Below are positions 6,244 to 56,094 of a stretch of 64,000 nucleotides of DNA, piece by piece; within the stretch, counting starts at the first letter, position 1, and each line of letters starts with the position of its first letter. Source of the DNA: Eledone cirrhosa (lineage: Eukaryota); assembly GCA_964016885.1 (NCBI GenBank), contig OZ024746.1:32612001-32676000 (forward strand), written 5' to 3'. Under the pieces are notes generated by a model. It had not been told where the DNA came from and did no database searches. It saw only the letters and a list, made by a program, of their open reading frames with translations. Position numbers and translations under genes: made by a program.

Positions 6244-6601
6244 ATTCAGGCACTCCACACGCAATCCTGGATAGTTAATATCCGTCTATTTAGCCATGCT
6301 AATGTTGCTTCTCTCCCCGAGCCGCTTTCATAAATTTACTGGAAATAGTACAAACCTCTCTACCCTCAATTTCTTCATCAAGTAGTACTTGAAGAAGCCT
6401 GAGAAAATATGTCTGTCGCAAGACTTTTAAGCACGTTCTCCACACAATTTCCTTCATCATAGCCACTAGGGAAAGGAAGGTACCCTCTCTGTCTAGAGAA
6501 AACAAAGCAGTGACCGCACGCAACTGCCGTCGCCAAAATTAATAATTATTTTTGAATGACTATTAAAATATCTCCTACTTTATGATTGGAGGTACAACAG
6601 A

Positions 6602-14729: not shown

Positions 14730-15480
14730 ACGACAAGGAGAATCTGAGCATCGACAAAAATCAACTGGAGGTTTTTTTGTCCAGGGCCTATGGATAATTT
14801 CCAGAAATACATGACCAGAGAGCATTGCCGGTTCGGGATAAACTTTAAAGGTACGGAAATGCCATGATCGGGAGCTGTCGGAGATACACGCGGAGAGACG
14901 AAACTGCTCTATGAGCACTTGTACATGGGTTATAACGAATAGTTGCTATCACATGTAAAATGGATGCAGCTACCAGCTGAGTTCAATCTAAATATCATCA
15001 CGCCATCTTCCTTTGACCAGGAAGTGGGGGAGTGGCAGGCAGTTTTTATCTGTCTGTTTGCCATGATGATAAAAGTTTTGTGGCGGAGAAAAATTAAAAT
15101 GACTGAAGGCAGACAATTTCCTCCTGAAAAGAAAACTGAAGGAGGAGAAGGAGGTGTCTTCCTGCAAATTTGTTGAAAGGTGGATTAGAGTGGCGAGCAT
15201 AGTCCAAGAGAACGAGTCTGCTTTCCGTATGTAGCACTAGGAGGACAAACAGCTGAAGGCATTTACCTTAATGGTCAGGGGATTTGGTTTTTGTGGGATT
15301 TTCTACTAGTATCCTTTGGAGATATCGCTCTCACCTATTGGAGAATTTTCTGTGTTACATTTTATTTTACTTATTTTGTTATTCTTTTCGTTATTTCCCC
15401 TTTACGCTTCACCTAAGCTTACAGCGTATCGTCCTGTTCCACCCTCAATATTTATGTAAGACAAAGTAGGGAATGAAAAA
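14730..15480 (+). pseudogene. old Tx1 ORF2 C-terminal relic plus 3' UTR
   Basis: Translates with stops and frameshifts as PGPMDNFQK..ALPVRDKL..DETAL.ALV..QAVFICL..FVERWIRVA, colinear with the ORF2 C-termini of the two intact Tx1 elements. Confidence 0.8.
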
Positions 15481-21625: not shown

Positions 21626-22184
21626 TATACGCGAAGACTATAATGTTATCATTTACTACGTGCGAGAGTCATCTTAGGTATTTAAGTAGACCAAAGATCT
21701 GTTACGTTCAATTCTCGTTCATATCTTAGTAGTCTATTGATGTGAAGTGTCAAACATTTTCCTGCGTTTCTGTTTTCTTATTTTCATAATCCCAAAACTA
21801 CCCGAAATATCTTGCACATTATCGATTCTACTCAAATCGCTTTTTTTCATGGCGAACCACCATTGTTGTCGACTATTGCTTCCGTCAACGAGCGCTTAAC
21901 TAATTCCCTAATCCGATTTGTGTAAGCTTTGCGCACCTGAAACGACGCGTCCAGTTTCCAGTAACCAAGTCCCTGTTTATGAAGTAATTTAAGTCGACAA
22001 TACAGTCATAAGTATGTATCATGAGTAGTCGACTACACTGAATTATGGACAACCTATGATAGCCTTATTTAATTCCCGATCTATCTATTTCCAAGGTCAG
22101 AATCCGCCATGAAATATAGTGAAAGAATAATAAAAAGGAAGAACTTGAGAAGTTAGAAAAACAAGGGAGGTGATGACAATATTC

Positions 22185-26740: not shown

Positions 26741-27065
26741 TTAGTGCACCCCAGATTTAAATTCCCTCTCTTTTGTCTTCTTTGGTATAACTATAATAAT
26801 AATAATAATAATGATTTCATTTATTGGCCACAAGGGCCGACATATAGGGGACAACACAATAGACAGGGACAGTGGGGGTTTACATAGAGATCGAGTAAGT
26901 ATAAATAACAAAAAAACAAAATAACAATAAAAATACAACAATGAAAGTTCCCCAATAAGAGGGATCACCACCCAGGGTTGGCTCAAGCACCCCACCAGTC
27001 CTGAGCCACCCGACGCTCCTAGGGCACCCGGGAAGGGCACCCCTCTCCTTCTCGAATTCACCAGC

Positions 27066-30000
27066 CTACAGGCGCATGATCAGAGTAGGCCCACTCACGC
27101 GGGCCATTCTCGCCACATTCACCCACCTTTCAGTAAATGTACTGGGGGGCAGCACTTCTCTCTCCACCCTCACCTTCCTTTCCAAGTGAAACTTGAAGAA
27201 GTTGATGAGGGATTGGCCGAAGAGAAAAGTGTCTGTCTTCAGTCCTTTCAACCTGGTCCACCATGCAACCTCTTTCGCTACTGCCACCAGGCAGAGGAAA
27301 ATTGCCTGCCCTTCCTGACCAAAAGAAGGCGGCGGGTCAATCTTCACTATGGACTCGGACGATAGCCGGATCCGTTCTACACGCGACAATAGCTGTTCGA
27401 CATAACCCCACAAGTCAGCAATGCACGGACACTGGACGAGTGCGTGCAGAACGGTTTCGTCGCTCTGCGCGCATCTCGGGCAGGTTCGTCTGACAGCACT
27501 TCCGTGCCTGTAGAGTTTATCCCGAACCGGCAGCGCCCCCCGGTAGCACTGCCAAGCGAGGGATTTCTGGAAGTTATCCATCGTCCCCGGCTCGAAAGTC
27601 CTCCGGAACATACTGGTCAGTTCTACTTCGTTGACGCCCAGAGCCTCTCCTAGTACGTCATCGCACTTGCCCTCCACTAATCCTCTATAGAAATCTTGAG
27701 TGGAAGTTCCACTGACCGCATTGCCCACCTTGCAGAGTGCAGTGAGCGCCTGGCAACATTCCAGATGCCAGTCGCCCAGTCTCGGTCTCTTCTTGACCCA
27801 GGACTGCAGCTCAGTCAAAGAGATGAGCTGCGGAAAGGCCCGTCTAACAAACGGCGACCACACCTGTTCACCGTTTAGGCAAAATATCTGGAGATGTCGC
27901 AGCCTCAGCGCATGTCTGCGCATCATTAGCCACGGCATGCCCAGCCCTCCACGAAGAGGGTGCTGGCAGCAGATGGACCGCCTCACCAACGGGACCCGTC
28001 CCCTCCACAAAAATTTGAAAAGGAGCCGTTCCAAATTGGCGAGGCGTGGACGGGGGCAAGGCACGACGGTCAGGCGGTAGTAGATGACGGACGCGATGTA
28101 CGCGTTCGCCACCTCCGCCCGCCCTTTCAGTGATAGCTTTCTCTCAGCCCATTTCTGGGTGAGGTTGGCTATCCTGCTCGTCACCTCGTCCCAATTCTTA
28201 TCCACCTGGAGGTCTGGTCCGAACCAAACCCCGAGCAACTTTACCGGTCCGTCTGTCCAGCGCCCAACGACGCTGTTGGACGGCATGGACTTGCCTCTCC
28301 AGGTGCCGAGCTGCAAGCCCACCGACTTTTCCGGGTTAAGTTTTGCTCCCGTCAACCTTTCATATTCCTCCAAATGGGTGCGGATCACCTCGATTTCCGA
28401 GGTGTCCGACACCATCACGGTGATGTCGTCCGCATAAGCGGACGCAGCCTTTCTGCGTCCCGGTTCGAGCGGGATGCCCTGCAACAACTCCAGCTTCCGC
28501 AGTAGAGGCTCAAGAGTCAATACGTACAGAAGTGAGGAGAGAGGGCACCCTTGACGGACCGATCGAGAGATCTGAAACGGTTCCGAGAGGTGGCCATTAA
28601 CTTTGACCACCGAGCGGATGCCGCTGTACATTGCAGCGATCCAGCTTCTGAAGACGGGGCCGAAGCCAGCCGCCTCGAGGACAGCCTCCAAGTACCGATG
28701 GTCGACCCTATCGAATGCTTTCGATTGATCTAAATTGATCAGAGCCCCACCGAAGCCAGGTTTGCACCCAACCCTCTCTATGATGTATCGCATGAGGTGG
28801 AGGTTGTCGTGTATGGACCTGGTCGGGATTGCGCAAGTTTGCGCCTCCCCAACCAAATCTTTGACGACAAGCGCCAACCTTTTCGCTAACACCTTGGCCA
28901 AAATCTTAAACTCTGTGTTGAGCAGGGTTATGGGCCTGAAATTATCTAGTGTGTCCCTCTTGTTCTCGTCTTTCCTTATCAGCGTCACTACGCCACGGCT
29001 CACAGAACTGGGAATGCTCCCGTTCTGCTGCCAGTTGCAGTAGAGCGCTTCGAGGAGATCGGAGAACAAGTCTGGCATATTTACGTAAAGCTCGTAGGGC
29101 AGACCATCCAAACCGGGTGACTTGCGACTCGAGCAGCCGACAAGGGCGTCCTGAATTTCGGCTGATGTTATCGGCTCTTCGCAGCGCTCAGCGTCGGCCG
29201 TCGAGAGGCGTGGCAAGCCGTCGAGGTAGGGACTGAGGTCCGCCGCCGTTTCCGACTCACCCATCCTCCCGAACAATCGAGCAAAGTGCTGGCGAAAGGC
29301 CTCACACATCCGCTTGGAATCGCTCAGTTCGTGTCCATCTCGATCCGTCAAAGACCGAATTGTGGTTTTATTTCCACGCTGCGTCTCTGCAAAGCGAGCC
29401 CATCGGGCAGCTTTGGTTCCCTCGTTCCTCAGAGCACGCGCCTTAGCTCTGACAATGCAACCTTCGTGTTTCGCATTGAAGAAATGGTCTAGTGCCATTC
29501 TCGCCGCTAGCACGTCTGTTGCAATGCCACTACAAATAGCCTCGTCTAACTTAGCTATCAGCCCCTCCTCCTTTCTATTTTTCTCTATTGCTACTTCTTT
29601 GCTAAATCCTATCGAGGTTGCTCTAATCTCTCTTTTGAGTGCCCCCCACCACCTGTTGTTGACAACCCCCCCTGTCAACTTTTGCTTAACTAAGTTGTTG
29701 ACCCGGTCCCTGTAAGCTTTACGTGCCGGAAACGACATGTTTAGCTTCCAGTAGCTAGGTCCTAACCTACGTGTCTTATCTAGGTCGACCATACAGATCA
29801 CAAGCTTGTGATCTGAATAGGCAACCGTTTTAAAATGTGGACATCCTACACTATTTCTATCTCTTTTCCTAATGAAAATCCTATCTATGTACGATCTAGA
29901 TGACCCTATGCGATTGGTCCAGGTCCATACTGGCGCATTAGGGAAATCTAGTCGGTACCTGTCAGACAGTTGAAACTGGCTGATCAGGTACTTGAGGCTT

Positions 30001-30485
30001 TTGCACCCCCCGCTCCTATCAGATACTCCCACACAATCCCAGCGTGCTTCTAAGATGCCATTCCAATCCCCTATTAACAGTAAAGGGCGAGACGTAAGCA
30101 GAAAGTTTTCCAGGCGCCTAAAGAAGTCCGGCCGACCGGCCCCAGTAGGGGCGTAGACGGCCACCAGTCTAAAGGCACCACCTTCGCTATTGCTCACGTC
30201 CAGGACCACCAACTTTCCGTCAGGATCCCGGAAGATTGACCTTACCTCGAGATCCAGACATTTCCTAAACAGCACAGCCACTCCACCTCCCATTCCCGGC
30301 CGACTAACAGATGCAAAGATCTGATAATCGTCGAAAATCGGCGCCAGTGCGCGTGTGTCGGAAATTCTGGTCTCGCTGATGGCAATTACATCCATTCCTA
30401 GTGACCTGAGGTCGTTGAGCAAGTGACCTTGCTTCCAGGGCGACCCCAGGCCACGAACATTTAAACTTCCTACTCTTATGGCCAT
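27066..30485 (-). CDS. Tx1 ORF2: APE endonuclease, reverse transcriptase and C-terminal CCHC (1139 aa)
   Basis: SLNVRGL, ISETR, VYAP, GDWN, SYIDR, SDH (APE); KSPGLDG, NFRPITLLN, LDQSKAFDRVDH, VRQGCPLS, AYADD (RT); CPRC..ETVLHALVQC. Confidence 0.95.
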   Translation of the reverse strand: MAIRVGSLNVRGLGSPWKQGHLLNDLRSLGMDVIAISETRISDTRALAPIFDDYQIFASVSRPGMGGGVAVLFRKCLDLEVRSIFRDPDGKLVVLDVSNSEGGAFRLVAVYAPTGAGRPDFFRRLENFLLTSRPLLLIGDWNGILEARWDCVGVSDRSGGCKSLKYLISQFQLSDRYRLDFPNAPVWTWTNRIGSSRSYIDRIFIRKRDRNSVGCPHFKTVAYSDHKLVICMVDLDKTRRLGPSYWKLNMSFPARKAYRDRVNNLVKQKLTGGVVNNRWWGALKREIRATSIGFSKEVAIEKNRKEEGLIAKLDEAICSGIATDVLAARMALDHFFNAKHEGCIVRAKARALRNEGTKAARWARFAETQRGNKTTIRSLTDRDGHELSDSKRMCEAFRQHFARLFGRMGESETAADLSPYLDGLPRLSTADAERCEEPITSAEIQDALVGCSSRKSPGLDGLPYELYVNMPDLFSDLLEALYCNWQQNGSIPSSVSRGVVTLIRKDENKRDTLDNFRPITLLNTEFKILAKVLAKRLALVVKDLVGEAQTCAIPTRSIHDNLHLMRYIIERVGCKPGFGGALINLDQSKAFDRVDHRYLEAVLEAAGFGPVFRSWIAAMYSGIRSVVKVNGHLSEPFQISRSVRQGCPLSSLLYVLTLEPLLRKLELLQGIPLEPGRRKAASAYADDITVMVSDTSEIEVIRTHLEEYERLTGAKLNPEKSVGLQLGTWRGKSMPSNSVVGRWTDGPVKLLGVWFGPDLQVDKNWDEVTSRIANLTQKWAERKLSLKGRAEVANAYIASVIYYRLTVVPCPRPRLANLERLLFKFLWRGRVPLVRRSICCQHPLRGGLGMPWLMMRRHALRLRHLQIFCLNGEQVWSPFVRRAFPQLISLTELQSWVKKRPRLGDWHLECCQALTALCKVGNAVSGTSTQDFYRGLVEGKCDDVLGEALGVNEVELTSMFRRTFEPGTMDNFQKSLAWQCYRGALPVRDKLYRHGSAVRRTCPRCAQSDETVLHALVQCPCIADLWGYVEQLLSRVERIRLSSESIVKIDPPPSFGQEGQAIFLCLVAVAKEVAWWTRLKGLKTDTFLFGQSLINFFKFHLERKVRVEREVLPPSTFTERWVNVARMARVSGPTLIMRL

Positions 30486-30514
30486 GCTGGCAGGATGAAT
30501 GGGAGAGGAAAGGT

Positions 30515-32419
30515 TTACTTACCTTCCGGGGTCTTGTGAAGGTCGGGTGGTTCGACCTCCATGGTTTGTGGGGTTTCTTTTGGGAACCCCTTTAATAGTC
30601 TTGACGTGGGTTTTACGTTCGGGGTTCCCACATCCCGAGGAAAGCTCTTTCGAATTTCTTTGTATGAAGCGAGCGACATTCGCATCAGAAGCAAATTATC
30701 TGGTACGCGAAATGTGCTCGCTTCAAATGTTTCCCCGTCTTTTTCGATGTTTGTGCTTCGTGCTACATGGGCCATCAATTCCTTGTTGGCCCTTCTGGCA
30801 AGCACGAAGTTTTTAATGTTTTGTTGCTCGGGTTTTATTTGTTCGTGTGATTGTGGTGGTGATAGCTTTGTTAGTGTTGTTTCTATTGTGTCTGCGTTTG
30901 TTGTGGGTGGGGTGTCTGTAGTTTCTGATGTTTGTGTGTCTATTTGTTCTTGTGTCTGTTTAGCTTGTTTGCGTTTGGGGGATTTTGGTGGTTGTGTTGG
31001 TGATGCTGTGGGGAAAATGTTTGTGTGGGTGGTGTGTGTATTTTTTTTTGTGGGGGTGTTTGTGCTTTGTGGATTTCTTTTTTTTTTGTGTTTTGTTTTT
31101 TGTATTTTGGGGGACTTTGGTTTTCCCTCATCTTCACTGCTGGAGGATGAGGGGTCTGTGGCTGTGAGCGTGTTTGTGTCTGAGTGAGTGTTTATGTTCT
31201 TGTTCGTGTGTGTATTTTGGGGGGGAGGGGGAATGGGAGAGCTTTCCTCGTTTCCCCCCTGGGTGTGCAATTTTGGTGGTTCCATTGTTGACGGTGTTGC
31301 TGGTGGTCCTTGTCCCGGCGTCGCCAGCAGTGGAATCTTTCGACCCCTTGCGCTTTTCGGCAGTTGAGGGCAGAAGGCTCGCAAGTGTGTCGTTTCCCCA
31401 CAAAGGAAACAATGCGGCCTTTTGCCCTCAGTCATTATATGCAACACCCTCCCGTTTTGGAGGCGGATGTGGTCCGGGATTGTTTTTACGTTTTCGGGTC
31501 TGATTTGGAGCAGTATCTCCAGATCAACCCCGGACCAGTCGTCCCTGGCAGTTCTCGTTGCCTCTACCGGGACTGTATCCGTTCCTTCCACGATTACGCA
31601 ACCCAGGAGCCACCACATATCAAGTCCTGGTGGAATCCTGGGAATGCGCACACGTGCTATTCGTTTTCCCATGTGGGAGGGGTACATTATGACCTTGCTG
31701 GTTTTGCAAGGGGTCATTGAATGCTTCACAGCGAGGGCTTCAGACTTGAACAGCACCGAAACGGTGCCGTATTGCCTGCCCCTCTCTATGAAGTCTGTGT
31801 CCTCTCTGATGTATTTCAGTGCGGCTTCTATGTCAGCTTGGGCGATTATCGCTGCCCTCTTTGTCTCTACTGAGATGCATCTGAAATGCACCGTTCTTTT
31901 TTCCACTGCCTCAATGGCTTCTGCCGGGACAGTTAAGTTTGCCCAGGTCTGCTCTTGATTTATGATTTTCCAGGCCTGGGCCAACTTTTCCTCTCTGTTG
32001 GTTAAGTCGATGCTGTAGCATGGTCTCCTTTTAGCCGCTGCCACAGCAGCGAAAGTGTTCTTGTTGGTGTTGTCACTGTTGTTGTTCTTGTTGGTGTTGC
32101 TGCTGCTATTGCTGTTGTTGTTCTCCCCTGTGTCGTGGTTACCTTCTGTGCTGTTGGCCTTGTTGGTGCTGCTGCTGTCGCTACTATTACTCTCTGTGCT
32201 GTTCGTTTTGTTGGTGCTCTCGCTATTACCACCTTCTGCGCTGTTCGGCTTGTTGGTGTTGTCGCTGTTACCACCTTCCGCGCCGCTCGGCCCGTTGGTG
32301 CTGGCACTGTCGCTGCTCACATTCGTGCTGGTGGCGCTCCTCGCCTCACCTCTCCTCTCAACGCTCAAGTCGCCGTTGCACGACAGCAGACCCGCCTCTA
32401 GGGGGCGTGGCTCCGCCAT
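30515..32419 (-). CDS. Tx1 ORF1 (gag-like, single CCHC knuckle, 634 aa)
   Basis: CFLCGETTHLRAFC; homologous to ORF1 of element #2 (RTV.FR.I, YPS.MGK, EG.RP.C, DVG.P.VKP). Confidence 0.88.
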   Translation of the reverse strand: MAEPRPLEAGLLSCNGDLSVERRGEARSATSTNVSSDSASTNGPSGAEGGNSDNTNKPNSAEGGNSESTNKTNSTESNSSDSSSTNKANSTEGNHDTGENNNSNSSSNTNKNNNSDNTNKNTFAAVAAAKRRPCYSIDLTNREEKLAQAWKIINQEQTWANLTVPAEAIEAVEKRTVHFRCISVETKRAAIIAQADIEAALKYIREDTDFIERGRQYGTVSVLFKSEALAVKHSMTPCKTSKVIMYPSHMGKRIARVRIPRIPPGLDMWWLLGCVIVEGTDTVPVEATRTARDDWSGVDLEILLQIRPENVKTIPDHIRLQNGRVLHIMTEGKRPHCFLCGETTHLRAFCPQLPKSARGRKIPLLATPGQGPPATPSTMEPPKLHTQGGNEESSPIPPPPQNTHTNKNINTHSDTNTLTATDPSSSSSEDEGKPKSPKIQKTKHKKKRNPQSTNTPTKKNTHTTHTNIFPTASPTQPPKSPKRKQAKQTQEQIDTQTSETTDTPPTTNADTIETTLTKLSPPQSHEQIKPEQQNIKNFVLARRANKELMAHVARSTNIEKDGETFEASTFRVPDNLLLMRMSLASYKEIRKSFPRDVGTPNVKPTSRLLKGFPKETPQTMEVEPPDLHKTPEGK

Positions 32420-32687
32420 GTTTTTTTGAGAAAAAAATTATTATTTTTTTTTTCAAAATAAAGTTCAAATATTTGGGCCAAAAGGCCCAAATATTATGAG
32501 TTATTCCTTCACAGGATACAAATTAATGTCTTATAATGCTTCAGCGGTACAAAAAATAAACAATTCTCTACAATTAATCCTCAAAAATTGCTTACTCACG
32601 GAGCTTCAAAAAACGTACATCCACTTTCGTCAATAATAATAATAATAATAATAGTAATATTTGTAATAATGATAATAGTAATAATAA

Positions 32688-32730
32688 TGATTTCTTTATT
32701 AACCACAAGGGTTTACATAAAGTAGACATA
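32688..32730 (-). mobile_element. very short Tx1 3' end in (ATT)n
   Basis: Minus strand ATGTAAACCCTTGTGGTTAATAAAGAAATCATTATT; AAT repeats on both sides. Confidence 0.6.
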
Positions 32731-32941
32731 ATAATAATAACAACGGATTATAATGATGAAAATAATACAAATAAATAAATAACAAAAATAAATGATATAA
32801 ACAAAAGAATAAAACCACGTAATTCCACGCTTCACTAAATTTTGTTCAAATCTTGCAAATCTATCGGCAGAATATCAGGAGATGCTACTTCAACCATATC
32901 TACAGGTGTGTATGTGTGTTAGTATATATATACAGAGAGAG

Positions 32942-32980
<39 letters not shown>

Positions 32981-33341
32981 GGTTGTTTTTTTAATTTGTA
33001 TAGACACTATACTTGCAAAAATCCGAGTTTATGCAGACAAAATGTATAGATGCATCCTGTTGCATTTCAATTATCTAACTATCTATCTATCTATCTATCT
33101 ATCTATATATTAATCTAGCTGTCGTCTGTTCTACAGTGTGGATGTCATTCACTTCGCACAGAAGTTTTGTTCAAATTTATTGAGGAAATTTTGTGAGTTC
33201 AAACTTAATTTTGATACAATTGTGTAGCTTGACCCTCCGTCTGAACTGTCAGGCGGTGGGTCAGCTCATCTTTACCCCTCCTAGAGGTGAAAAACCTGTT
33301 TTAAAAAATTTTGTGTAAAAAATTTCAATCGTCTAACAGAA

Positions 33342-35220
33342 ATGTTAAACGCAGCGAACGAAAATAGTGGTGGGGGGACAGCGGTAAGAGTTGTAAGCTC
33401 GCACGCTTTAGTCCTCCCTTCCTTCCCAACTAACGTCATAGAGAAGGAAGGAAAAATGAAAATAAAAACGGACGAATCTGCGGAGGAAAAATTAAATAAC
33501 GAAAACAACGAAAAAAAAAAATTTGAAAAATTGCATGACAATACTAATAACACAAACAAAGACACAACAAACAAAAAAATAACAGTTGAAAATAACATCA
33601 TATCAGAAAACAAAGCAGACGACAAGATTTCTTTTGCACAGAAAACAAAGAAATCTTTGACTTATATAGCGGAAAACATTTCAGATGTGGTACGAAGGAT
33701 CACGGACGCAAAACAATACATAAGTGAAGGTGAGAATGGTATTTTATTGGTAAAAATGCCTCAAGAATTCACGAAAGACATTGAAAGCCGAACGGTCAAG
33801 TTTCGGACCATCAACAACAGTACAAAAAAACCTGAACAGCCTTCTCAAGCAGATATCAAAACAGTACTCGCAGAAGTACTGAATGAAACAACTTTCATAA
33901 GAAAAGACAGACTGTATGGAAGCCTAGCAATTATCATGAAGAACGAATCGGCGGCAAAAAAATGTGCTTTGTCACCGATTCGTTCGAAAAATTTCACCTT
34001 TTATCCATCTTATATGGGAAAAAAAAACTCAACGCATATGGCTGGATGCAATGATGCCAGATGTGGACTACTGCTGGCTCATAGCTGGCTTCATCGATCC
34101 AGTGAATGACAACGTGATTTCCATTGGGAAAACCACAGGCAATGCGTTCAGTGGAACAGGTATAGAGCTGGTAGTACAAATGAAGCCTGAACGCATCGCC
34201 CAAATACCCGACAGAATCCTATTAGAGGACCACGGGTATATAAACATTAGCGTGGAGGGGAGAAGGCCGTCCTGCCATATCTGTGCAGGCAGAGGGCACC
34301 TGAAGGCCGCTTGTCCCCAACTCAACAAAAAGAAAACCCTGCTACCAACACCAGCTCCACCACCACCACCACAACAGATAAACAAACAACAAAACTCAGT
34401 CCCACCCAACCCGTCCCTCAGTAACACCACAACACCACCACAACACAAACAGTCACAACACATTACCCCAAAACAAAATACAGGCCCACCCAACCTCTCA
34501 CTCAATAAAACAACACAACCACCGCAGACACAACACACAACACAGTCTAACATAGTGACATCCATCTCCCCCACAAAGAAAACCAACACGGAAACATTAC
34601 CAGCAAACATACCTCTTCCCTCCAACACTGAAGATAACCCAACGAATTCGGAGGAAGAAACGGAGTCCTTCAGACAGATTAAAAGGAAAAAAAGAAAACA
34701 TGTGCAAAACACACAAGGACAAACAACCCCCACCCAAATCGCAACACAATCTAACAAAACAGAAAACACCCCTCCAGCAACAAACAAAACCAAACCTGCC
34801 CCTCCCCTCTTCGAAACACTCACACCATCGGAAAAAAAGACATTACACTATACTTACATCAACAGAAACAATAATAAATTAAATGAACTCATATACAATA
34901 ATCCTTCGGTACAAACCGAAGGTGTAAACTTTGTTTCGTCAGAAAACCACCCACATTTAAAACTAATAAAAATCCCAATGAACCTCTACCAAAAACTAAA
35001 AAAGGATTTTAAGGAGGACGTAGGACCACCCTCTGTCAAACCCATAAACCGCGTCCTACTAAAAAGCTTTCCCCCTCCCCTTCCCCTCCCCAACACAACT
35101 CCAAACACCCCAACCCCACCACACACCGACGACCCCACACCACCACAAGACACCCCTTCACCCAACACCCCCGACCCCATGGAAGTCGTGCAACCCGAAC
35201 CCCGGGAAGCGGAAAGGTAG
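33342..35220 (+). pseudogene. Tx1 ORF1 split by a +1 frameshift in an A9 run at 34019-34027
   Basis: Removing one A gives YPSYMGKKTQRIWL, matching YPSHMGKRIARVRI of element #1; knuckle CHICAGRGHLKAAC. Confidence 0.85.
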
Positions 35221-35253
35221 GTCTCTACACTCTCCTTTGGCTCTGCCGCCCAC

Positions 35254-38200
35254 ATGGATGTGTTAAGAGTAGGATGTTTGAATGCACGTGGCCTGGGCTC
35301 AACTTGGAAGCAAGCAAAGCTTCTAAATGACCTCAGGTCATGTAGTATAAATGTAATGGTTATCTGTGAGACTCGAATCAGCGTCATGCGGCAGCTGGCC
35401 CCCACCTTCGATGACTTTGAGGTGCATGCATCTCTCTGTCAACCTGGAGGTGGGGGTGGGGTTGTCGTGCTGCTGCAAAAACACCTGGGTCTTGCCGTAC
35501 AGGTTGTGCACTCGGACCCGGAGGGTCGTTTGTTGGTGCTAGACGTTGGCAGTAGTGAAAGTGCGGCCTTGAGACTGGTCGCCGTCTACTCCCCTTTCGG
35601 AGCTGAACGGCCCGACTTCTTCCAGCGTTTGGAGACTTTCCTGGGAACGTCGCGTTCCCTGCTTCTAGCGGGGGATTGGAATGACATCCTGGATGCACGT
35701 TGGGACTATGCAGGAGCATGTCCTAATAGAGGGGGGTGTAACAGCCTCAAGGGGTTACTCGACCGTTTTAACTTGGTCGATAGATATCGACTAGATTTTC
35801 CAACTGTGCCTACCTGGACTTGGAGAAACCACAGTGGTCAATCTAGATCGTACTTAGATAGATTCTTAGTTAGAAGTAAGGATAGGGACATATTAAGCTG
35901 TCCAGAAATGCGCACGGTTGGCTACACGGATCACAAATTAGTGACCTGCGTGGTCAATCTCGAGAAAACACATAGACAGGGTCCCGGTTACTGGAAACTT
36001 AATTTGTCTTTACCGGCAAAAGAGACTTACAGAAACCGGATTAGCAGATTAGTTAAGGAGAGGTTGACGGGTGCAATCGTCAACAACCGATGGTGGGCAT
36101 CTCTCAAAAGAGAGATTAGAACAGAATCAATAAGTTATAGCAAGATGTTAGCTGCCAATAGGAATAGAAACGAGAAAGAATTAACAGGTAAATTAGAAGA
36201 GGCAATCAAGAGCGAAGATGTGGCCAGAGTGCTGGCATCGAGGACGGCCTTGAACCAGTTTTTCGATGCAAAGCATGAAGGCTGCGTCATTCGAAGTAAA
36301 ATACGTGCTCTAGGTAATGAGGGGGCCAAAGCCGTTGGATGGGCCCGCGTGACAGAAGCTAAAAGTGGAAATCGATCCACCATCCGGTCGTTGCAAGACG
36401 AAGATGGACGAGTGATCCGGGAGCCTAAGCAGATGTGCGAGGCCTTTCAAAAGCACTTTGCCCGATTGTTCGGGGGAGGCGAGGGTCCGGGCCGGGGCGT
36501 GGATTTCGGTCCATACCTCGACGGCCTGCCGCGTCTCTCGAACAAAGAGGCAGAGTCCTGCGAGGGACCAATCTCGGCTGATGAGATCGGAGATGCGCTG
36601 AGCCAATGCAGCAGACGCAAATCTCCAGGTCTCGATGGTATACCTTACGAACTTTATTTAGCAATGCCGGTCTTCTTCTCCGAACTCCTTGAAGCGGTCT
36701 ACTGCAATTGGCAGCAGAACGGGAGAATTCCTTGTTCTGTAGCCAAGGGCGTAGTCACGCTGGTGAGGAAGGACGAGAACAAGGGGGATAGTATAAATAA
36801 TTTTCGGCCCATAACCCTGCTAAACACAGAGTTAAAGATTTTGGCCAAGGTGTTAGCAAAGAGGTTGGCGCTTGTCGTGGGTGGCCTGGTGGGAGATGCG
36901 CAGACATGTGCTATCCCATCCAGGTCCATTCACGATAACCTCCACCTCATGCGATACATCATAGAGAGGGTTGGCAACAAACCCGGCTTCGGTGGGGCCC
37001 TGATCAACTTGGATCAGTCTAAGGCCTTCGATAGGGTCGACCATGGTTACCTGGATGCGGTGCTAGCGGCGGCTGGGTTCGGTCCTGTTTTCAGAGGCTG
37101 GATCACTGCCCTACATAGCAACCACATCTGTTCTAGGATCAAGGTGAACGGCTACCTTTCGAAGCCGTTCGAAATCACACGATCCATTCGACAGGGGTGC
37201 CCTCTCTCCTCCCTTCTGTACGTATTGACTCTCGAGCCTTTACTGAGGAAGTTGGAGTTGTTGCAGGGTATCCCCCTGGAACCAGGATTGAGCAAAGCGG
37301 TGTCGGCCTACGCCGATGACGTAACAGTAATGGTATCAACCGACTCGGAGATCGAGGCGATCGGTACCTTACTGGAGGAGTACGAAAGGTTGTCAGGAGC
37401 GAAACTGAACCGGGAAAAATCCATCGGGCTGCAACTCGGAACATGGAGAGGCAGACCGATGCCTCCTGACGGTGTCGTCGGACACTGGACGGAGGGCCCG
37501 GTAAAGTTGCTTGGGGTCTGGTTTGGACCGGACCTCCAGGTGGAAAAGAACTGGAACGAGGTTACGAACAAGGTGTTTGCACTAACCCAGAAATGGGCCA
37601 AGTGTAAGCTGTCCCTAAAAGGCCGGGCGGAGGTGGCGAACATTTACATAGCGTCCGTCACTTACTACCGCCTGACTGTCGTGCCTTGCCCTAAGGAAAC
37701 ACTCACCACCATGGAACGCATGCTCTTCCAATTTCTTTGGAAGAAGCGTCCTCCTATGGTGAGAAGATCCATCTGCTGCCAACAACCTTCGAAAGGAGGG
37801 CTGGGGATGCCGTGGTTGATGATGCGTAGGCACGCATTAAGGCTACGGCACCTACAGGTATTCCTCACTGGTCAACCGGTGTGGGCTCCGTTCGTGAAAC
37901 GAGCCTTTCCGAGACTCGTCTCACTCACCGAGCTACAGTCCTGGGTCAAGCAAAGATCCGGAAAACTGGGAGACTGGCACACTGAGTGTGCTCAGGCGCT
38001 CAGGGCTCTCTGGCAAGCGGGCCGGGCCATCGGTGGAGAATCCACCTCATCATTCTATAGAGGGCTGGTGGCTAGCAGGGGCGATGACACCCTTGGGAAG
38101 TCGCTGGACATGGAAGAAGACGAACTGGCCAGCCTGTTCGGTAGGACTTTCGGCCCAGGACCAATGGACAACTTCCAGAAGTCACTGGCCTGGCAGTGCT

Positions 38201-38691
38201 ACCGAGGGGCTCTACCCGTTCGAGAGAGGCTCTACAGACACGGGCGCCCGGGCAGGGATCCCTCAAAAAAGATTTGCCCTAGATGCGTGCGTCACGAAGA
38301 AACCGTGGCGCACGCATTGGTGCAATGTCCGGGCGTGGCTGATCTGTGGGGCTACGCCGAACAACTGCTGTCGCGGGTGGCGCCGATTAAATTGACCGCC
38401 GAGTCCGTGATGACAATCAAACCGCCTCCCCTCTTCACAAAGGAAGCAAAGGCGGTTTTTCTGTGCGTAATAGCCATGTTGAAAGAGGTTGTTTGGTGGA
38501 CACGATTGAAAGGTCTGAGGTCAGGCAACTTCCTCTCTGGCCATAGTCTGGTCTACTTCTTCCGATATCACTTCGGAAGGAGGATAAGAATGGAGAGAGA
38601 GGTGCTTGGCCACAGGCAGTTTTATGAAAGGTGGGTGATAGTGGCGAGAATGGCTCGTGTAAATGGGCCTTCTCTGTATACCATCCTGTAG
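35254..38691 (+). CDS. Tx1 ORF2: APE endonuclease, reverse transcriptase and CCHC (1145 aa)
   Basis: CLNARGL, GDWND, SYLDR, TDH; LDQSKAFDRVDH, IRQGCPLS, AYADD; CPRC..ETVAHALVQC. Confidence 0.95.
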   Translation: MDVLRVGCLNARGLGSTWKQAKLLNDLRSCSINVMVICETRISVMRQLAPTFDDFEVHASLCQPGGGGGVVVLLQKHLGLAVQVVHSDPEGRLLVLDVGSSESAALRLVAVYSPFGAERPDFFQRLETFLGTSRSLLLAGDWNDILDARWDYAGACPNRGGCNSLKGLLDRFNLVDRYRLDFPTVPTWTWRNHSGQSRSYLDRFLVRSKDRDILSCPEMRTVGYTDHKLVTCVVNLEKTHRQGPGYWKLNLSLPAKETYRNRISRLVKERLTGAIVNNRWWASLKREIRTESISYSKMLAANRNRNEKELTGKLEEAIKSEDVARVLASRTALNQFFDAKHEGCVIRSKIRALGNEGAKAVGWARVTEAKSGNRSTIRSLQDEDGRVIREPKQMCEAFQKHFARLFGGGEGPGRGVDFGPYLDGLPRLSNKEAESCEGPISADEIGDALSQCSRRKSPGLDGIPYELYLAMPVFFSELLEAVYCNWQQNGRIPCSVAKGVVTLVRKDENKGDSINNFRPITLLNTELKILAKVLAKRLALVVGGLVGDAQTCAIPSRSIHDNLHLMRYIIERVGNKPGFGGALINLDQSKAFDRVDHGYLDAVLAAAGFGPVFRGWITALHSNHICSRIKVNGYLSKPFEITRSIRQGCPLSSLLYVLTLEPLLRKLELLQGIPLEPGLSKAVSAYADDVTVMVSTDSEIEAIGTLLEEYERLSGAKLNREKSIGLQLGTWRGRPMPPDGVVGHWTEGPVKLLGVWFGPDLQVEKNWNEVTNKVFALTQKWAKCKLSLKGRAEVANIYIASVTYYRLTVVPCPKETLTTMERMLFQFLWKKRPPMVRRSICCQQPSKGGLGMPWLMMRRHALRLRHLQVFLTGQPVWAPFVKRAFPRLVSLTELQSWVKQRSGKLGDWHTECAQALRALWQAGRAIGGESTSSFYRGLVASRGDDTLGKSLDMEEDELASLFGRTFGPGPMDNFQKSLAWQCYRGALPVRERLYRHGRPGRDPSKKICPRCVRHEETVAHALVQCPGVADLWGYAEQLLSRVAPIKLTAESVMTIKPPPLFTKEAKAVFLCVIAMLKEVVWWTRLKGLRSGNFLSGHSLVYFFRYHFGRRIRMEREVLGHRQFYERWVIVARMARVNGPSLYTIL

Positions 38692-38994
38692 GTAAAGAAG
38701 TAAAGGAGAGGGGAGCACCTTCTCCATGTGCTCCCCGGGCAAAGGATTGCACACTTTTTCGGGGGTGTGTGCAACCCCCATCACGTCCCCTCCCTTTTGA
38801 GGTCATTTTCGATTATTTTCATGTTACACCCTTTTTACTCGATTATATGTAAACTCCCCCTTTGTATTTGTCCCTTCTTTTTATGCCTTTATGGTAAATA
38901 AAGAAATCTATCTATCTATCTATATATTTATCTATCTGTTTATCAATCTATCTATGAAGCTCCCCCTCTCTCTCTTTATATATATATATGTATA

Positions 38995-51998: not shown

Positions 51999-52646
51999 TC
52001 ATCCCTTGAATCGCAAGAATGTTTTGCAAATTTTGAAGGTGCCAGCTATCGTAGCCATTTGTAGACTATGAATTAGGGAGCTGTGCTCTTTGTCCGCAAA
52101 TCCAAGTTCAGTCATACTTTGGTGCAAGCGGGTTGGTATATAACCCGTAGCTCCAATAATGATGGGTACGAAGCTAAAGGTGTATCTTGGATACTGGATT
52201 TGTAAACTCCTCATCAATGGTCCGTAGATGTCCTCCTTCTCCTGTATTTTTCTGACAACGTTTACATCAAGTGAGCAGCTGATCTCCACAACAGAACACG
52301 TTTTCAATGTGTGGTCACAAACAACAATATCAGGCCGGTTGTGCTTTAATTTGGTGGCAGTTTTTATTTTCAGGTTCCACCAGTATTCCTTAGTGCCATC
52401 TGTCTCAATGTATTCTTCCTCGTTTGTTGTTAATTTTGTTTTCCGAAGTGCGTTCCAGATGGTTCTAGCTATCCCATCGTGTCTTATGGAGAGGTAGTAG
52501 CGAGATGACATTCTTTCGCAGCTGGCAACAATGTGGCTTACATCCTCGATCTTTGTTTTACATAGCCTACATTTATTGTCCCCTTTTGTGCAGCAGATAT
52601 TTGGTAGGGAGTTCTTGTTCCTGTATTGCATAGAGATATCCCTCAA
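51999..52646 (-). pseudogene. CCHC zinc knuckle and PD-(D/E)XK restriction-like endonuclease
   Basis: CRLC..EDVSHIVASC, RHD, HNRPDIVV, EISC, K..KEDIY, PIIIGATG. Confidence 0.88.
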
Positions 52647-52972
52647 GGTGTGATGTCATAAACTTGTCGGAACTCCATGCCAGGCTTTTTGAGTGGTTTA
52701 TGTATGTATGTATGTGCGTATGTACGTATGTATGTGTGTATGTATGTATTTTTCATCTTGTTTGAATATTGAATAGGATCTTCCGATTTCTCTGGGTGAG
52801 AGATTTATATCAGGCTTTATTCCATAACTCTCCTCCAGATCAGTGGCTATTCTAATGATATTTCTTTTTTCATGCTCATAAACCTGAGCAAGATGGTTGC
52901 CAACCTTTTTCCTCTGGTGAAGATGTTGCTTCAGTGTTACTATCCGGGTCTCATATGATGTTAATATGGATT

Positions 52973-54454
52973 TTAGACCCCGGCCACCTTCCTTGCGTGA
53001 GAAGTATAGCCTATCCACTTCACCATTGATGTTAAAGTAACACTGAGAAGTTTGCGAGTTCTAATATCCATCTCACTTAGTTCTTGCAATGACCAGTTCA
53101 GCAGGCCAAATGTTGGCGTTAGAATTGGCACAGCATAAGTATTGTGGGCAATGTATTTGTTGTACGCTGACAGTTCTGATGACCATATTTTCTTTACTCT
53201 TCTGAGGTATTCAGTTCTGGTTCTCTCCTTATTTATGGGTCCATCATATCTGACATTCTCATCCTGTCCAAGAAATCTGTAGTTGTCATCTGACTGTAGA
53301 GGTTGTATTGTCAGGCCGTTTATCTCTAGATTTCTAGAGGAGGACACAGCTCTTCCACGTTTTACTGCCAAATATGCACACTTGGACTCACCAAATTTCA
53401 TTTTGATGTCTGTTGAAAATTGTGTAATGAGGTCCAATTGTTTCTTGATGTCATTGATATTTGGCCCATACAACTTCAGGTCATCAACAAAGAAAAGATG
53501 GGAGATACTTCTGGACCCAGTTCTTTGTCCACCTTGTTTCCTGAGTAAGTACGATAGTGGATTTAGTGAGAGAACGAAGAATAGCACTGACAAGCTATCA
53601 ACCTGAAAGATGCCCTTCTGGTAATGTATCTTATCAGTCTTAACTTGCTCCTTCTCACCTCTAAGGATCAAATTGGTGTACCAGTTCTTGGTCAGACGTT
53701 CAACAGCAGCTACCAGTGGTTGTGGGACTTTGGCTAACTGTAAAGCCTTAACAATCCACCCATGAGGTACACTATCAAATGCTTTTTGATAGTCCAGCCA
53801 CACCACAGTCATGTTTCTGCGATTCTTTGTTGTTTTTTCTTGAATCATTTTATTAGTTAGTAGGTGATCTATGCAACCCCACACCTCCCTCTTTCCACCA
53901 GCTTGCTCAGGTGTTATGATGTTGTTGGTAGCAGAGTGATCCTGTAAGAACAGGTTAAGGCACCCAGTATATAATTTATACATGATGTTTTGGCAGGCTA
54001 TTGGGCGGTAATTTTTAGCAAGGGTGGTTTGGCTATTTTTGGGAATGAGGAGAGTAGTGGCAGTTGATAACCATCTGAACAGTTCTTGTGTGCCTTTAAT
54101 GGTTTCTGTAAACAACCGTATGATATCTTGCCGATAGAAAGTGAAATTCTTCAACCAGTATCCTGTAATGAGGTTTGGGCCTGGTGATTTCCTATTCGAC
54201 ATTTTCTGTAGAGCTGTTTCCAGTATTGACCCATCTATGTCATATTGTTTCGTCTGGACATGTTGGCAGTAGTCCTGTTCCAGTTCTTTTAGCCAATTAG
54301 TTTGTCTGTTGAATCCGTCATCCGTTTCCCATACAGATCTCCAGTAGCTCTCAAGTTGTTCTTTTGAAGGGGTGTCATTTACAGAGATTGAGATTTTGCC
54401 ACCGAAGCTGCGATAAACGGATTTAGGATCTCTGGCAAACAATCTATTTAGCAC
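52973..54454 (-). pseudogene. R4/Dong-type reverse transcriptase domain
   Basis: KSPGPN, NYRPIAC, WLDYQKAFDSVPH, GIFQVDSLS, SHLFFVDDLKLY, FGESKCA. Confidence 0.9.
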
Positions 54455-56094
54455 TTGTCATTTATGTGCTGTTGACTTATATTTTAGTCTTTCTGTTGTA
54501 GCTGTGAGTTGTTATTTCAACTGGTGTAATTTGGAGTTTAAAGTTTTAAATTTTGTATCTCCAAATCGTCTCTCTAACTTTCTTTTAGGTCTTCCTGGTG
54601 TCGTGTGAAGCTGCTCTCTATGTCGCATTTCATAACGACTGCGATGTGTGAGATACTTCGTCTCAGGGACAAAATTTTGCTTTTTAAATCTCGCATCCAC
54701 GCTGGTTCAGGATTTTTGTTTGTATCTTGATTGCGTGGTTTTAGATGTTTGTTATATGATAGCAATGTGACAGCTGAAACATATAACATAATGTTAAGCG
54801 TTTCAAATGTCATTTCTACACCTTTAGATCGTATAGCCTTCAGATAATTGTCAGCTATTTCGTTCACCGCTTCCAATTCCAATTTAGTGGGTTCTTTACT
54901 GATTCTGGTGTTGTATGGTCTGTCACTCACATTAAGGCTGTGTATCATTTGAAACATATCGTCCCATATCACTTGTAAGGTGTCCACAAGTTTTTGGTGT
55001 TCTGCTTGTACAGTAGAGTCATGAATTTCAGCCTCGTTGTTGATGTGGTGAAAATTACTACTAGAGTTAGATGACCATTCTCGCTGTTCTTCAGTGGAAG
55101 TGGGATGGATTTCAGCAACATTGTTGGTGAGTTGTTCACTGTTAGATTTGTCTTTCAGCGGAGGTCGGGTGGTTGTCTACAAGGGCTGTATTTGTAGTAT
55201 CACTCAATTCCGTTAGATGTATCAATTTACATCTAATGATACGTTTTGCCTGTTCATTTAAATGCTTTGGAGAAAAGTCTAATTCTGGGTGTTTGGAGTT
55301 CCATACAGTTTTTAGCCTTTGCATAAAACCGAACTTTTGGGGTTCAGATTGTTTGTATGCTTCATATAATTCTTTGTTAAGCTCGTAGCTCCACTGTATA
55401 CAACGGTTGTAGTTGCGATTTGGTCGAAGGAGACTTGTACGTTTTGCCATGATGAGTTCGTCTATTCACTAATATTTTGTATTTATTTTTCAAAATAGTC
55501 GATGATCTTCTTTAAAAGTTTTGACAAAGTTCTGTCAGAATCAAATTTAAAGTTATTCACAGCTTGGGTAATATTTCTTTTCAGTTAGTTTTTAATTCTA
55601 CAACTGTGTTTTAAACGTTGTTCTTGAATCGTTTGAATCGAGAACAAAAAAAAAAAAACGTTACTTAGTATATTTCTTTATGAATGTAATATAATATAAC
55701 AACGCTGTATTTATATGTTAAAGTTTATGTATTATTCATATAAATAGGTGTTCTACAACATATTCACAGTTCAAACACTTATGTTTTTGTTTCTGAATCG
55801 AAAACGTTACTTGCATATTTATGTACAAATGTAATATAACAACGTTACATTTATATGTTAAAGTGCATGTATCGTTCATATATCATAAGTGTATGTATCG
55901 TTCATATAAATAGGTGTTTTACAACACACTTACAGTTCAAACACTTATGTAGAATTATTGTATGTAATCTTACCGCGTAATGTAGCTCAACTTTTTCCAA
56001 TATATGGTATGTTGCCTTCATGTAAGCCGTAATTACACACGTCCGATTATCGGACACTGACCACAACGGTCGCCATTGTATGTATGTATACATG

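Follow-up and report, generated by a model that had tools for sequence, protein, structure and literature searches.

In Drosophila copia, an intron covering all of POL is spliced out to yield a Gag-only RNA, and in the plant Ty1/copia elements EVD/ATCOPIA93 and BARE1 of barley, splicing creates the stop of the shGAG RNAs (both as outlined in the accessible text of PMC5580714). These are long terminal repeat (LTR) elements with a single open reading frame (ORF), needing splicing to unbalance Gag and Pol. Splice sites also exist inside the RNA of the L1 group of long interspersed nuclear elements (LINEs). In the human L1 SpIREs and SpORF2, splicing removes the 5' untranslated region (UTR) or parts of ORF1, which produces dead-end copies or ORF2-only RNA and leaves retrocopies (PMC5860796 and PMC2896524, in the sections available). 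Here we describe two full-length Tx1-like LINEs of Eledone cirrhosa, arranged head-to-head in a window of 64,000 nucleotides (the whole stretch analysed: assembly GCA_964016885.1, contig OZ024746.1, positions 32,612,001 to 32,676,000, forward strand). These elements probably splice out all of ORF2 from a part of their RNA, yielding a predicted ORF1-only mRNA beside the unspliced RNA. The likeness to copia, EVD and BARE1 is that an intron over the whole enzyme region would give an RNA for the structural protein alone; judged by anatomy, both elements have such a predicted intron, and splicing would leave a complete ORF1 with its own stop. Unlike copia, they are non-LTR elements of the APE-RT kind with two ORFs; their donor overlaps the stop of ORF1, their acceptor is formed by the stop of ORF2, and their spliced RNA is a prediction. 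Unlike the human L1 events, splicing would remove ORF2 exactly and leave ORF1 whole, and retrocopies were not found.

Element 1 (family e1; 26813–32631, minus strand) has an ORF1 of 634 amino acids (30515–32419) ending E-G-K-stop. A donor-like site AAG/GTAAGT in phase 1 (30517–30525; the slash marks the predicted exon border) overlaps the ORF1 stop, while ORF2 (27066–30485; 1139 amino acids, open) ends with the TAG that is the predicted acceptor. The predicted intron of 3457 bases (27066–30522) consists of the spacer and all of ORF2, and in the spliced RNA ORF1 would end E-G-W-stop at a TGA (27058–27060). Element 2 (family e2; 33111–38908, ends approximate, plus strand) has an ORF1 ending E-R-stop (33342–35220), a donor-like site AAG/GTAGGT in phase 2 with the stop inside it (35214–35222), an open ORF2 of 1145 amino acids (35254–38691), again with the TAG as the predicted acceptor, and a predicted intron of 3475 bases (35217–38691). 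Here the spliced ORF1 would end at a TAA (38693–38695) with a protein identical to the unspliced one. The element's own AATAAA is close to the 3' end in both cases (26820–26825, minus; 38897–38902, plus). All these motifs lie where the first-pass annotation had placed them: the e1 ORF1 ends GAA G/GT AAG TAA with the GT at 30522, its ORF2 ends CTG TAG at 27066 and is followed by GC TGG TGA, whereas the e2 ORF1 ends GAA AG/G TAG GT with the GT at 35217 and its ORF2 ends CTG TAG at 38691, followed by G TAA. The spliced ends deduced there, E-G-W-stop and E-R-stop, are also correct.

That annotation took the two diverged elements as two witnesses of the same architecture. The motifs are real, but the elements and their ends are homologous (ORF2 is 67% identical in protein and 71% in DNA) and hence not independent. 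The third witness proposed, a decayed 3' relic of a related element (14769–15241, plus), indeed has a TAG (15238–15240) 48 bases from the conserved GTGGCGAG anchor, as does the ORF2 stop of intact relatives by visual comparison; the relic is too decayed to carry weight. Since e1 and e2 are homologous and any TAG stop contains AG, further subfamilies were needed. We compared 15 subfamilies from the same genome, with ORF2 DNA 68–91% identical in the pairs computed. They were collected with degenerate patterns, after which whole copies were fetched; chimeric or 5'-truncated copies (e.g. L122, L136, L126, L138) were excluded from the subfamily table. Together with a phase-0 variant of e1b this gives 16 representatives, mostly one copy each, which, like the phases, were picked by the authors. 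To assign the donor phase, the frame of ORF1 was taken at a conserved C-terminal motif. The ORF2 tree has three clades: A (e2, e8, e9, e3, e4, e4b, e6), B (e1, e1b, e1c, e1d) and C (e5a–c, e7).

The donor is the most conserved part of the architecture. G/GTRRGT is present at the ORF1 stop in all 15 subfamilies, with positions -1, +1, +2, +5 and +6 invariant, while the flanks from -12 to -3 and from +7 onward vary among the 15 subfamily representatives. MAG/GTRAGT is the 5' site consensus of major-spliceosome (U2-type) introns, and all 16 representatives match it at 7 to 9 of the 9 positions. In phase 1 the site translates as G-K-stop or G-E-stop and in phase 2 as R-stop, and a sub-lineage of e1b has it in phase 0; in addition, the tree shows six changes of the ORF1 stop codon. 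Thus protein sequence cannot be what keeps the donor. In phase 2, positions +5 and +6 are situated behind the stop and are non-coding, yet they are fixed. Besides the ORF1-stop sites, 89,680 bases of element sequence contain 25 sites matching 8 or 9 of the 9 positions, that is, about 0.0003 per base or 0.003 per 12-base window, and the donor of element 1 is the sole 9-of-9 site among its 282 GT sites. Judging from this pattern of substitutions, the donor is under selection at the RNA or DNA level.

ORF2 ends with TAG in 14 of the 15 subfamilies, the exception being e7 with TAA. In all 14 TAG-ending subfamilies a stop in the phase of the subfamily's own donor is seen within the first two full codons after the acceptor, compared with 1/14 and 0/14 for the two other phases and with a background of 150 stops at 2927 positions (0.051) in these 3' UTRs. 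In the phase-2 subfamilies the 3' UTR starts with G-TAA or G-TGA, so that the spliced protein would equal the unspliced one; in the phase-1 subfamilies it starts with NN-TGA, GC-TAG or GY-NGG-TRA. The restored stop changes among TAA, TGA and TAG three times on the tree with the frame kept. A role as a backup stop for read-through of ORF2 was rejected, the next stop in the ORF2 frame being 2 to more than 80 codons away. Upstream of the acceptor, pyrimidines are fixed at -20 to -17 and at -6 and -5. An unusual 3' end is that of e1c (L124, L125, L137), where a donor-like GTAGGT directly follows the acceptor; compared with the phase-2 ends, this looks like a 4-base duplication that may have moved the stop into phase 1.

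Further evidence comes from changes of the donor phase that are accompanied by a change at the distant stop. Subfamily e6 (316 matches in the genome) is nested in a phase-2 clade and is 86–88% identical to e3 and e4b. In 29 of 30 loci it has one base fewer before the donor, with G/GTGAGT intact in 27 of them, the 30th locus being a phase-2 relative. At the other end, 3.5 kb away, there is one base more after the acceptor, and N-T-TGA is observed in all 20 paired copies. In this case the 3' end was seen first and the 5' half was fetched afterwards, the prediction not having been written down. For the e5 families, whose 3' ends are TT TGA, AC TGA or AT TGA, phase 1 was predicted in writing before the 5' halves were seen, and this held in the copies read (some with point changes in the donor site), although the prior chance was about one in two. 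In the three-C variant of e1b, where the donor is in phase 0, the spacer is longer, so that the unspliced ORF1 still stops in frame, and the stop is at the third codon after the acceptor. With the background of 0.051 for each, two matched phase switches would be expected by chance with a probability of roughly 0.003 if independent. We know of no process, other than joining of the two sites, that would tie a stop to the frame in which ORF1 ends 3.5 kb upstream of it. Hence the coupling, as read from the DNA, supports selection on a predicted spliced and translated ORF1-only mRNA. The first-pass suggestion that ORF2 behaves as a selected intron with a kept stop is much strengthened beyond what two elements could show, as donor phase and restored stop co-vary across subfamilies; spliced RNA was not seen.

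The most probable mechanism is the following. The host major spliceosome would join the donor on the ORF1 stop to the AG at the ORF2 stop, removing an intron of 3.46–3.48 kb, the spacer plus ORF2, from part of the transcripts. The spliced e1 product would be about 2.3 kb long. Its ORF1 would differ from the unspliced one by no more than one or two residues, and its stop would lie in the last exon, about 200–250 bases ahead of the AATAAA. The unspliced RNA would be the template for ORF2 and for insertion; as the donor consensus itself contains a stop, this RNA ends ORF1 at once. The extra ORF1 protein from the short RNA would serve the unspliced RNA in trans: selection for the restored stop means that what the short RNA encodes is of consequence to the element, and this protein would then act in trans. 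The short RNA itself would rarely be copied back into the genome, because no ORF2 protein is made from it, under cis preference as described for L1 (available part of PMC5860796). As in EVD, U1 at the donor may also keep the long RNA from being polyadenylated early, which would explain the e7 case discussed below. Excess of ORF1 over ORF2 protein in two-ORF LINEs is known mostly from human L1, where it is achieved through translation of one bicistronic RNA. We lean towards the broader view that the whole octopod Tx1 lineage sets its ORF1:ORF2 ratio with ORF2 as a retained intron, that ORF1 protein is supplied in trans, and that one regulated retention choice governs retrotransposition. If so, exact splicing would be a second solution to the problem of the ratio, a convergent non-LTR version of the Gag-only splicing of copia, and the supply of ORF1 protein from a dedicated mRNA would run against the cis-preference rule derived from human L1.

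Several observations weigh against splicing of ORF2. The TAG changes only once on the tree, but 13 of 23 silent A/G third positions also change once or never; taken by itself, the acceptor AG is thus within the range of silent sites. A decent pyrimidine tract is present in the e2 clade, but the tract of e1 and e5 is weak and broken by purines, and no shared branch-point motif was visible, no scoring model trained on the host being used. The 14 TAG subfamilies amount to three clades, with only two clean phase switches accompanied by a matching stop. Further, a donor-like AAG/GTGGGT about 60 bases before the ORF2 stop recurs merely as the code for E-R-W-V, and so donor-like motifs can persist for other reasons.

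Nor did the search for spliced products yield any. The first-pass annotation had expected splicing to generate ORF1-only non-autonomous copies; the genome contains no match to the e1 or e2 junction, exact or with up to three mismatches, against 334 (e1) and 595 (e2) exact copies of the unspliced donor 25-mer, so that this expectation is not supported. In the e1 clade, none of the seven junction-like matches among 1102 donor-spanning copies is spliced, all seven being point variants of the unspliced sequence; the pattern used cannot match the spliced form of e1b, the subfamily to which 17 of the 100 donor-spanning copies listed belong. These searches covered e1, e1c/d and e2, with the junctions of e1b, e3, e4, e5 and e7 outside them, and in e6 all 30 loci read are unspliced. 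The absence of retrocopies would be expected of an ORF2 protein that copies no RNA but its own, the behaviour described for L1 (PMC5860796, same portion). HAL1 (half-L1) elements have ORF1 and the 3' tail without ORF2. This is the structure that a retrocopy of the spliced RNA would have, and none was found for e1, e1c/d or e2.

At the level of reads, the predicted e1 joint is not among the 15 joints listed of 2074 in four runs of unspecified kind, with no record marking any of them as RNA; the runs were compared with element 1 only (26815–32625), element 2 being outside the comparison. One of them, X4 (88 million letters, from a second sample), is possibly RNA, which is a guess. It has contigs across both unspliced e1 borders (29991–30566 and 26825–27129). 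The contig depth is 191–197 in the 3' part of ORF1, 21 in the contig crossing the donor and 20 in the 5' part of ORF1, but contig depth cannot rank gene parts, and the break at 30537 is a merge point with a sister subfamily, so this step is a lead only. Another run, X5, from a different organism, produced pieces identical to the letter, at depth 2, and was disregarded because these are probably carry-over.

The e7 subfamily is the main exception. It keeps a phase-2 donor, but TAA closes its ORF2 in each of the three copies that were read at both ends, as well as in the further 3' ends seen, which is one more point against the paired sites. Thus the conservation across subfamilies on which the first-pass annotation had made its case dependent is complete for the donor (15/15) and holds for TAG in 14 of 15, and the donor can outlast the acceptor. 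A candidate replacement is a GAG 13 bases before the e7 stop, which would fuse ORF1, in frame, with the last four codons of ORF2; GAG acceptors are rare. In the e7 copies L248, L321 and L322 the end of ORF1 is longer and the phase-2 donor is new.

A rival explanation, with which this exception agrees, is that only the donor works, binding the U1 small nuclear ribonucleoprotein (snRNP) without productive splicing or using other, variable acceptors, the distal stop being incidental. The donor is the sole motif clearly over-conserved, retrocopies are absent, and in the plant element EVD, U1 is reported to prevent premature polyadenylation (PMC5580714, in the part available). Still, we consider this explanation unlikely, as it accounts neither for the stop 3.5 kb away tracking the donor phase in 14 of 14 subfamilies nor for the paired -1/+1 change in e6; the donor may well have a U1 role in addition to splicing. 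Less probable again is shared ancestry combined with chance, by which the GTAA/GTAG-type context of the stop and the TAG would simply have been inherited, with no splicing at all. The homology of the elements, the match between TAG invariance and that of silent sites, the fact that stops belong to the donor consensus, and the lack of spliced RNA and retrocopies all agree with it. However, the part of the donor that follows the stop, which is non-coding in phase 2, is fixed while its neighbours diverge, the two matched phase switches would be a rare coincidence, and the distal stop is kept through three synonymous changes. Finally, that splicing is real but mainly a brake imposed by the host, removing the reverse transcriptase and leaving a short RNA whose ORF1 is useless to the element, is very improbable: RNA processing does lower the amount of full-length L1 RNA in human tissues (PMC2896524, sections available), but loss of the donor would free the element, yet all 15 subfamilies, several of them young and abundant, keep it, and the restored stop is kept too. 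Conservation of this stop fits a benefit to the element better than the host off switch suggested in the first-pass annotation.

We found no published LINE with ORF2 spliced out whole in the titles and abstract openings covered, most subscription papers, Repbase Reports and supplements being outside this search. In vertebrate L1, exonization of ORF1 into host genes has been described (10.1101/2024.04.25.591049, partial text), and the accessible part of an Arabidopsis atlas lists many LINE isoforms without mentioning this architecture (10.1101/2024.04.02.587720). The activity of transposons in cephalopods is currently attracting interest (PMC13282606, PMC9115989, as far as the texts were available), and L1-Tx1 families have recently been active in Octopus vulgaris (PMC13282606). 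The main text of the latter paper contains none of "splic", "intron" and "ORF1", and "splic" is absent from the main text of the octopus repeat paper PMC9115989. The practical consequences of splicing would be that reads from ORF1 do not report full-length, mobile RNA, and that host genes could capture some of the thousands of strong donors present in the genome. The link between donor phase and a distant stop offers a general test applicable to any repeat library.

The paired architecture looks confined to this lineage. Of 49 distant relatives (21–31% identity), 18 metagenome loci were read, and none of them has the donor together with TAG; a strong donor lies on the ORF1 stop of one locus, and two have an ORF2 ending with TAG. 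The former, a marine metagenome LINE with 27% identity, has G/GTGAGT on the ORF1 stop (L207:1925-1940) and no TAG at the end of ORF2. Two distant ORF1 proteins end with -QGK (P0071, 30%) and -EGKS (P0065 of Argonauta, 33%), as read-through of a phase-1 donor would give; here the comparison is at the protein level only.

Other arrangements of sites were considered as well. The spacer between ORF1 and ORF2 is pyrimidine-rich in every subfamily (e.g. 30486–30516 of the window, minus strand; L301–L319; L251–L280), and in e1, e1b, e6 and e4b a strong acceptor-like YAG is situated shortly before the ORF2 ATG, which makes an ORF2-only RNA possible in these four. As a general feature such an acceptor was rejected, because the AG before the ATG is absent in e1c, e2, e3, e4 and e5. 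Visual inspection also led to the rejection of a direct repeat at the two intron ends and of base pairing between them, similar ends being present only in e1c.

Given the copy numbers above, e1 and e2 are young, multi-copy families. The ORF1 of element 2 in the window is frameshifted by an extra A at 34019–34027, which is absent from all 25 other copies read (5 of the 30 loci lack the anchor); hence this particular copy is unable to make the full ORF1 protein. ORF2 of both elements contains the Pfam domains Exo_endo_phos (the APE endonuclease), RVT_1 (reverse transcriptase) and zf-RVT, and its best solved relative is human L1 ORF2p (E-value 4e-57), far ahead of R2. For e1 ORF1, a Pfam search gave no match. 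Its structure model (pLDDT 91) has tandem-RRM proteins as top fold matches, with TM-scores of only 0.24–0.39 by query; the predicted tandem RRM-like domains are followed by a CCHC knuckle, CX2CX4HX4C in the sequence, and there is a low-complexity linker. An exhaustive search yielded 247 relatives of ORF1, the named ones coming from Octopus sinensis, O. vulgaris and Argonauta hians, while two word-indexed searches found none.

The Tx1 label rests on anatomy and fits, in particular, the microsatellite flanks. Element 1 is flanked by (ATT)n and element 2 by (ATCT)n tracts; ATT repeats are seen at the end of 30 of 30 e1 copies, and the window copies have the same repeat on both sides, which may represent tail or target. 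The Tx1 elements Kibi and Koshi are likewise APE-RT non-LTR elements preferring simple repeats (PMC4494074, available part); unlike those of Kibi and Koshi, the apparent targets in the present case are (ATT)n, (ATCT)n and others. No named Tx1 reference sequence was among the matches.

Full-length copies also stand head-to-tail in arrays that repeat about every 5.8 kb (G000:C1:423365583-423418120; C1:168106302-168117968; C2:264520202-264531843), one of them comprising ten e1 copies, as expected if the repeat tail of each copy is the target for the next one. In the window, element 1 is immediately preceded on its upstream side by a short 3' remnant (32689–32760, minus) that by eye resembles the tail of e7, and element 1 seems to have inserted into the ATT tract of this remnant. 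Two further decayed fragments related to the e1 and e2 ORF2s are found at 6262–6511 and 21820–21978 (both minus), and a broken element of another LINE kind, with ORFs resembling reverse transcriptase, occupies positions 51999–55176 (minus).

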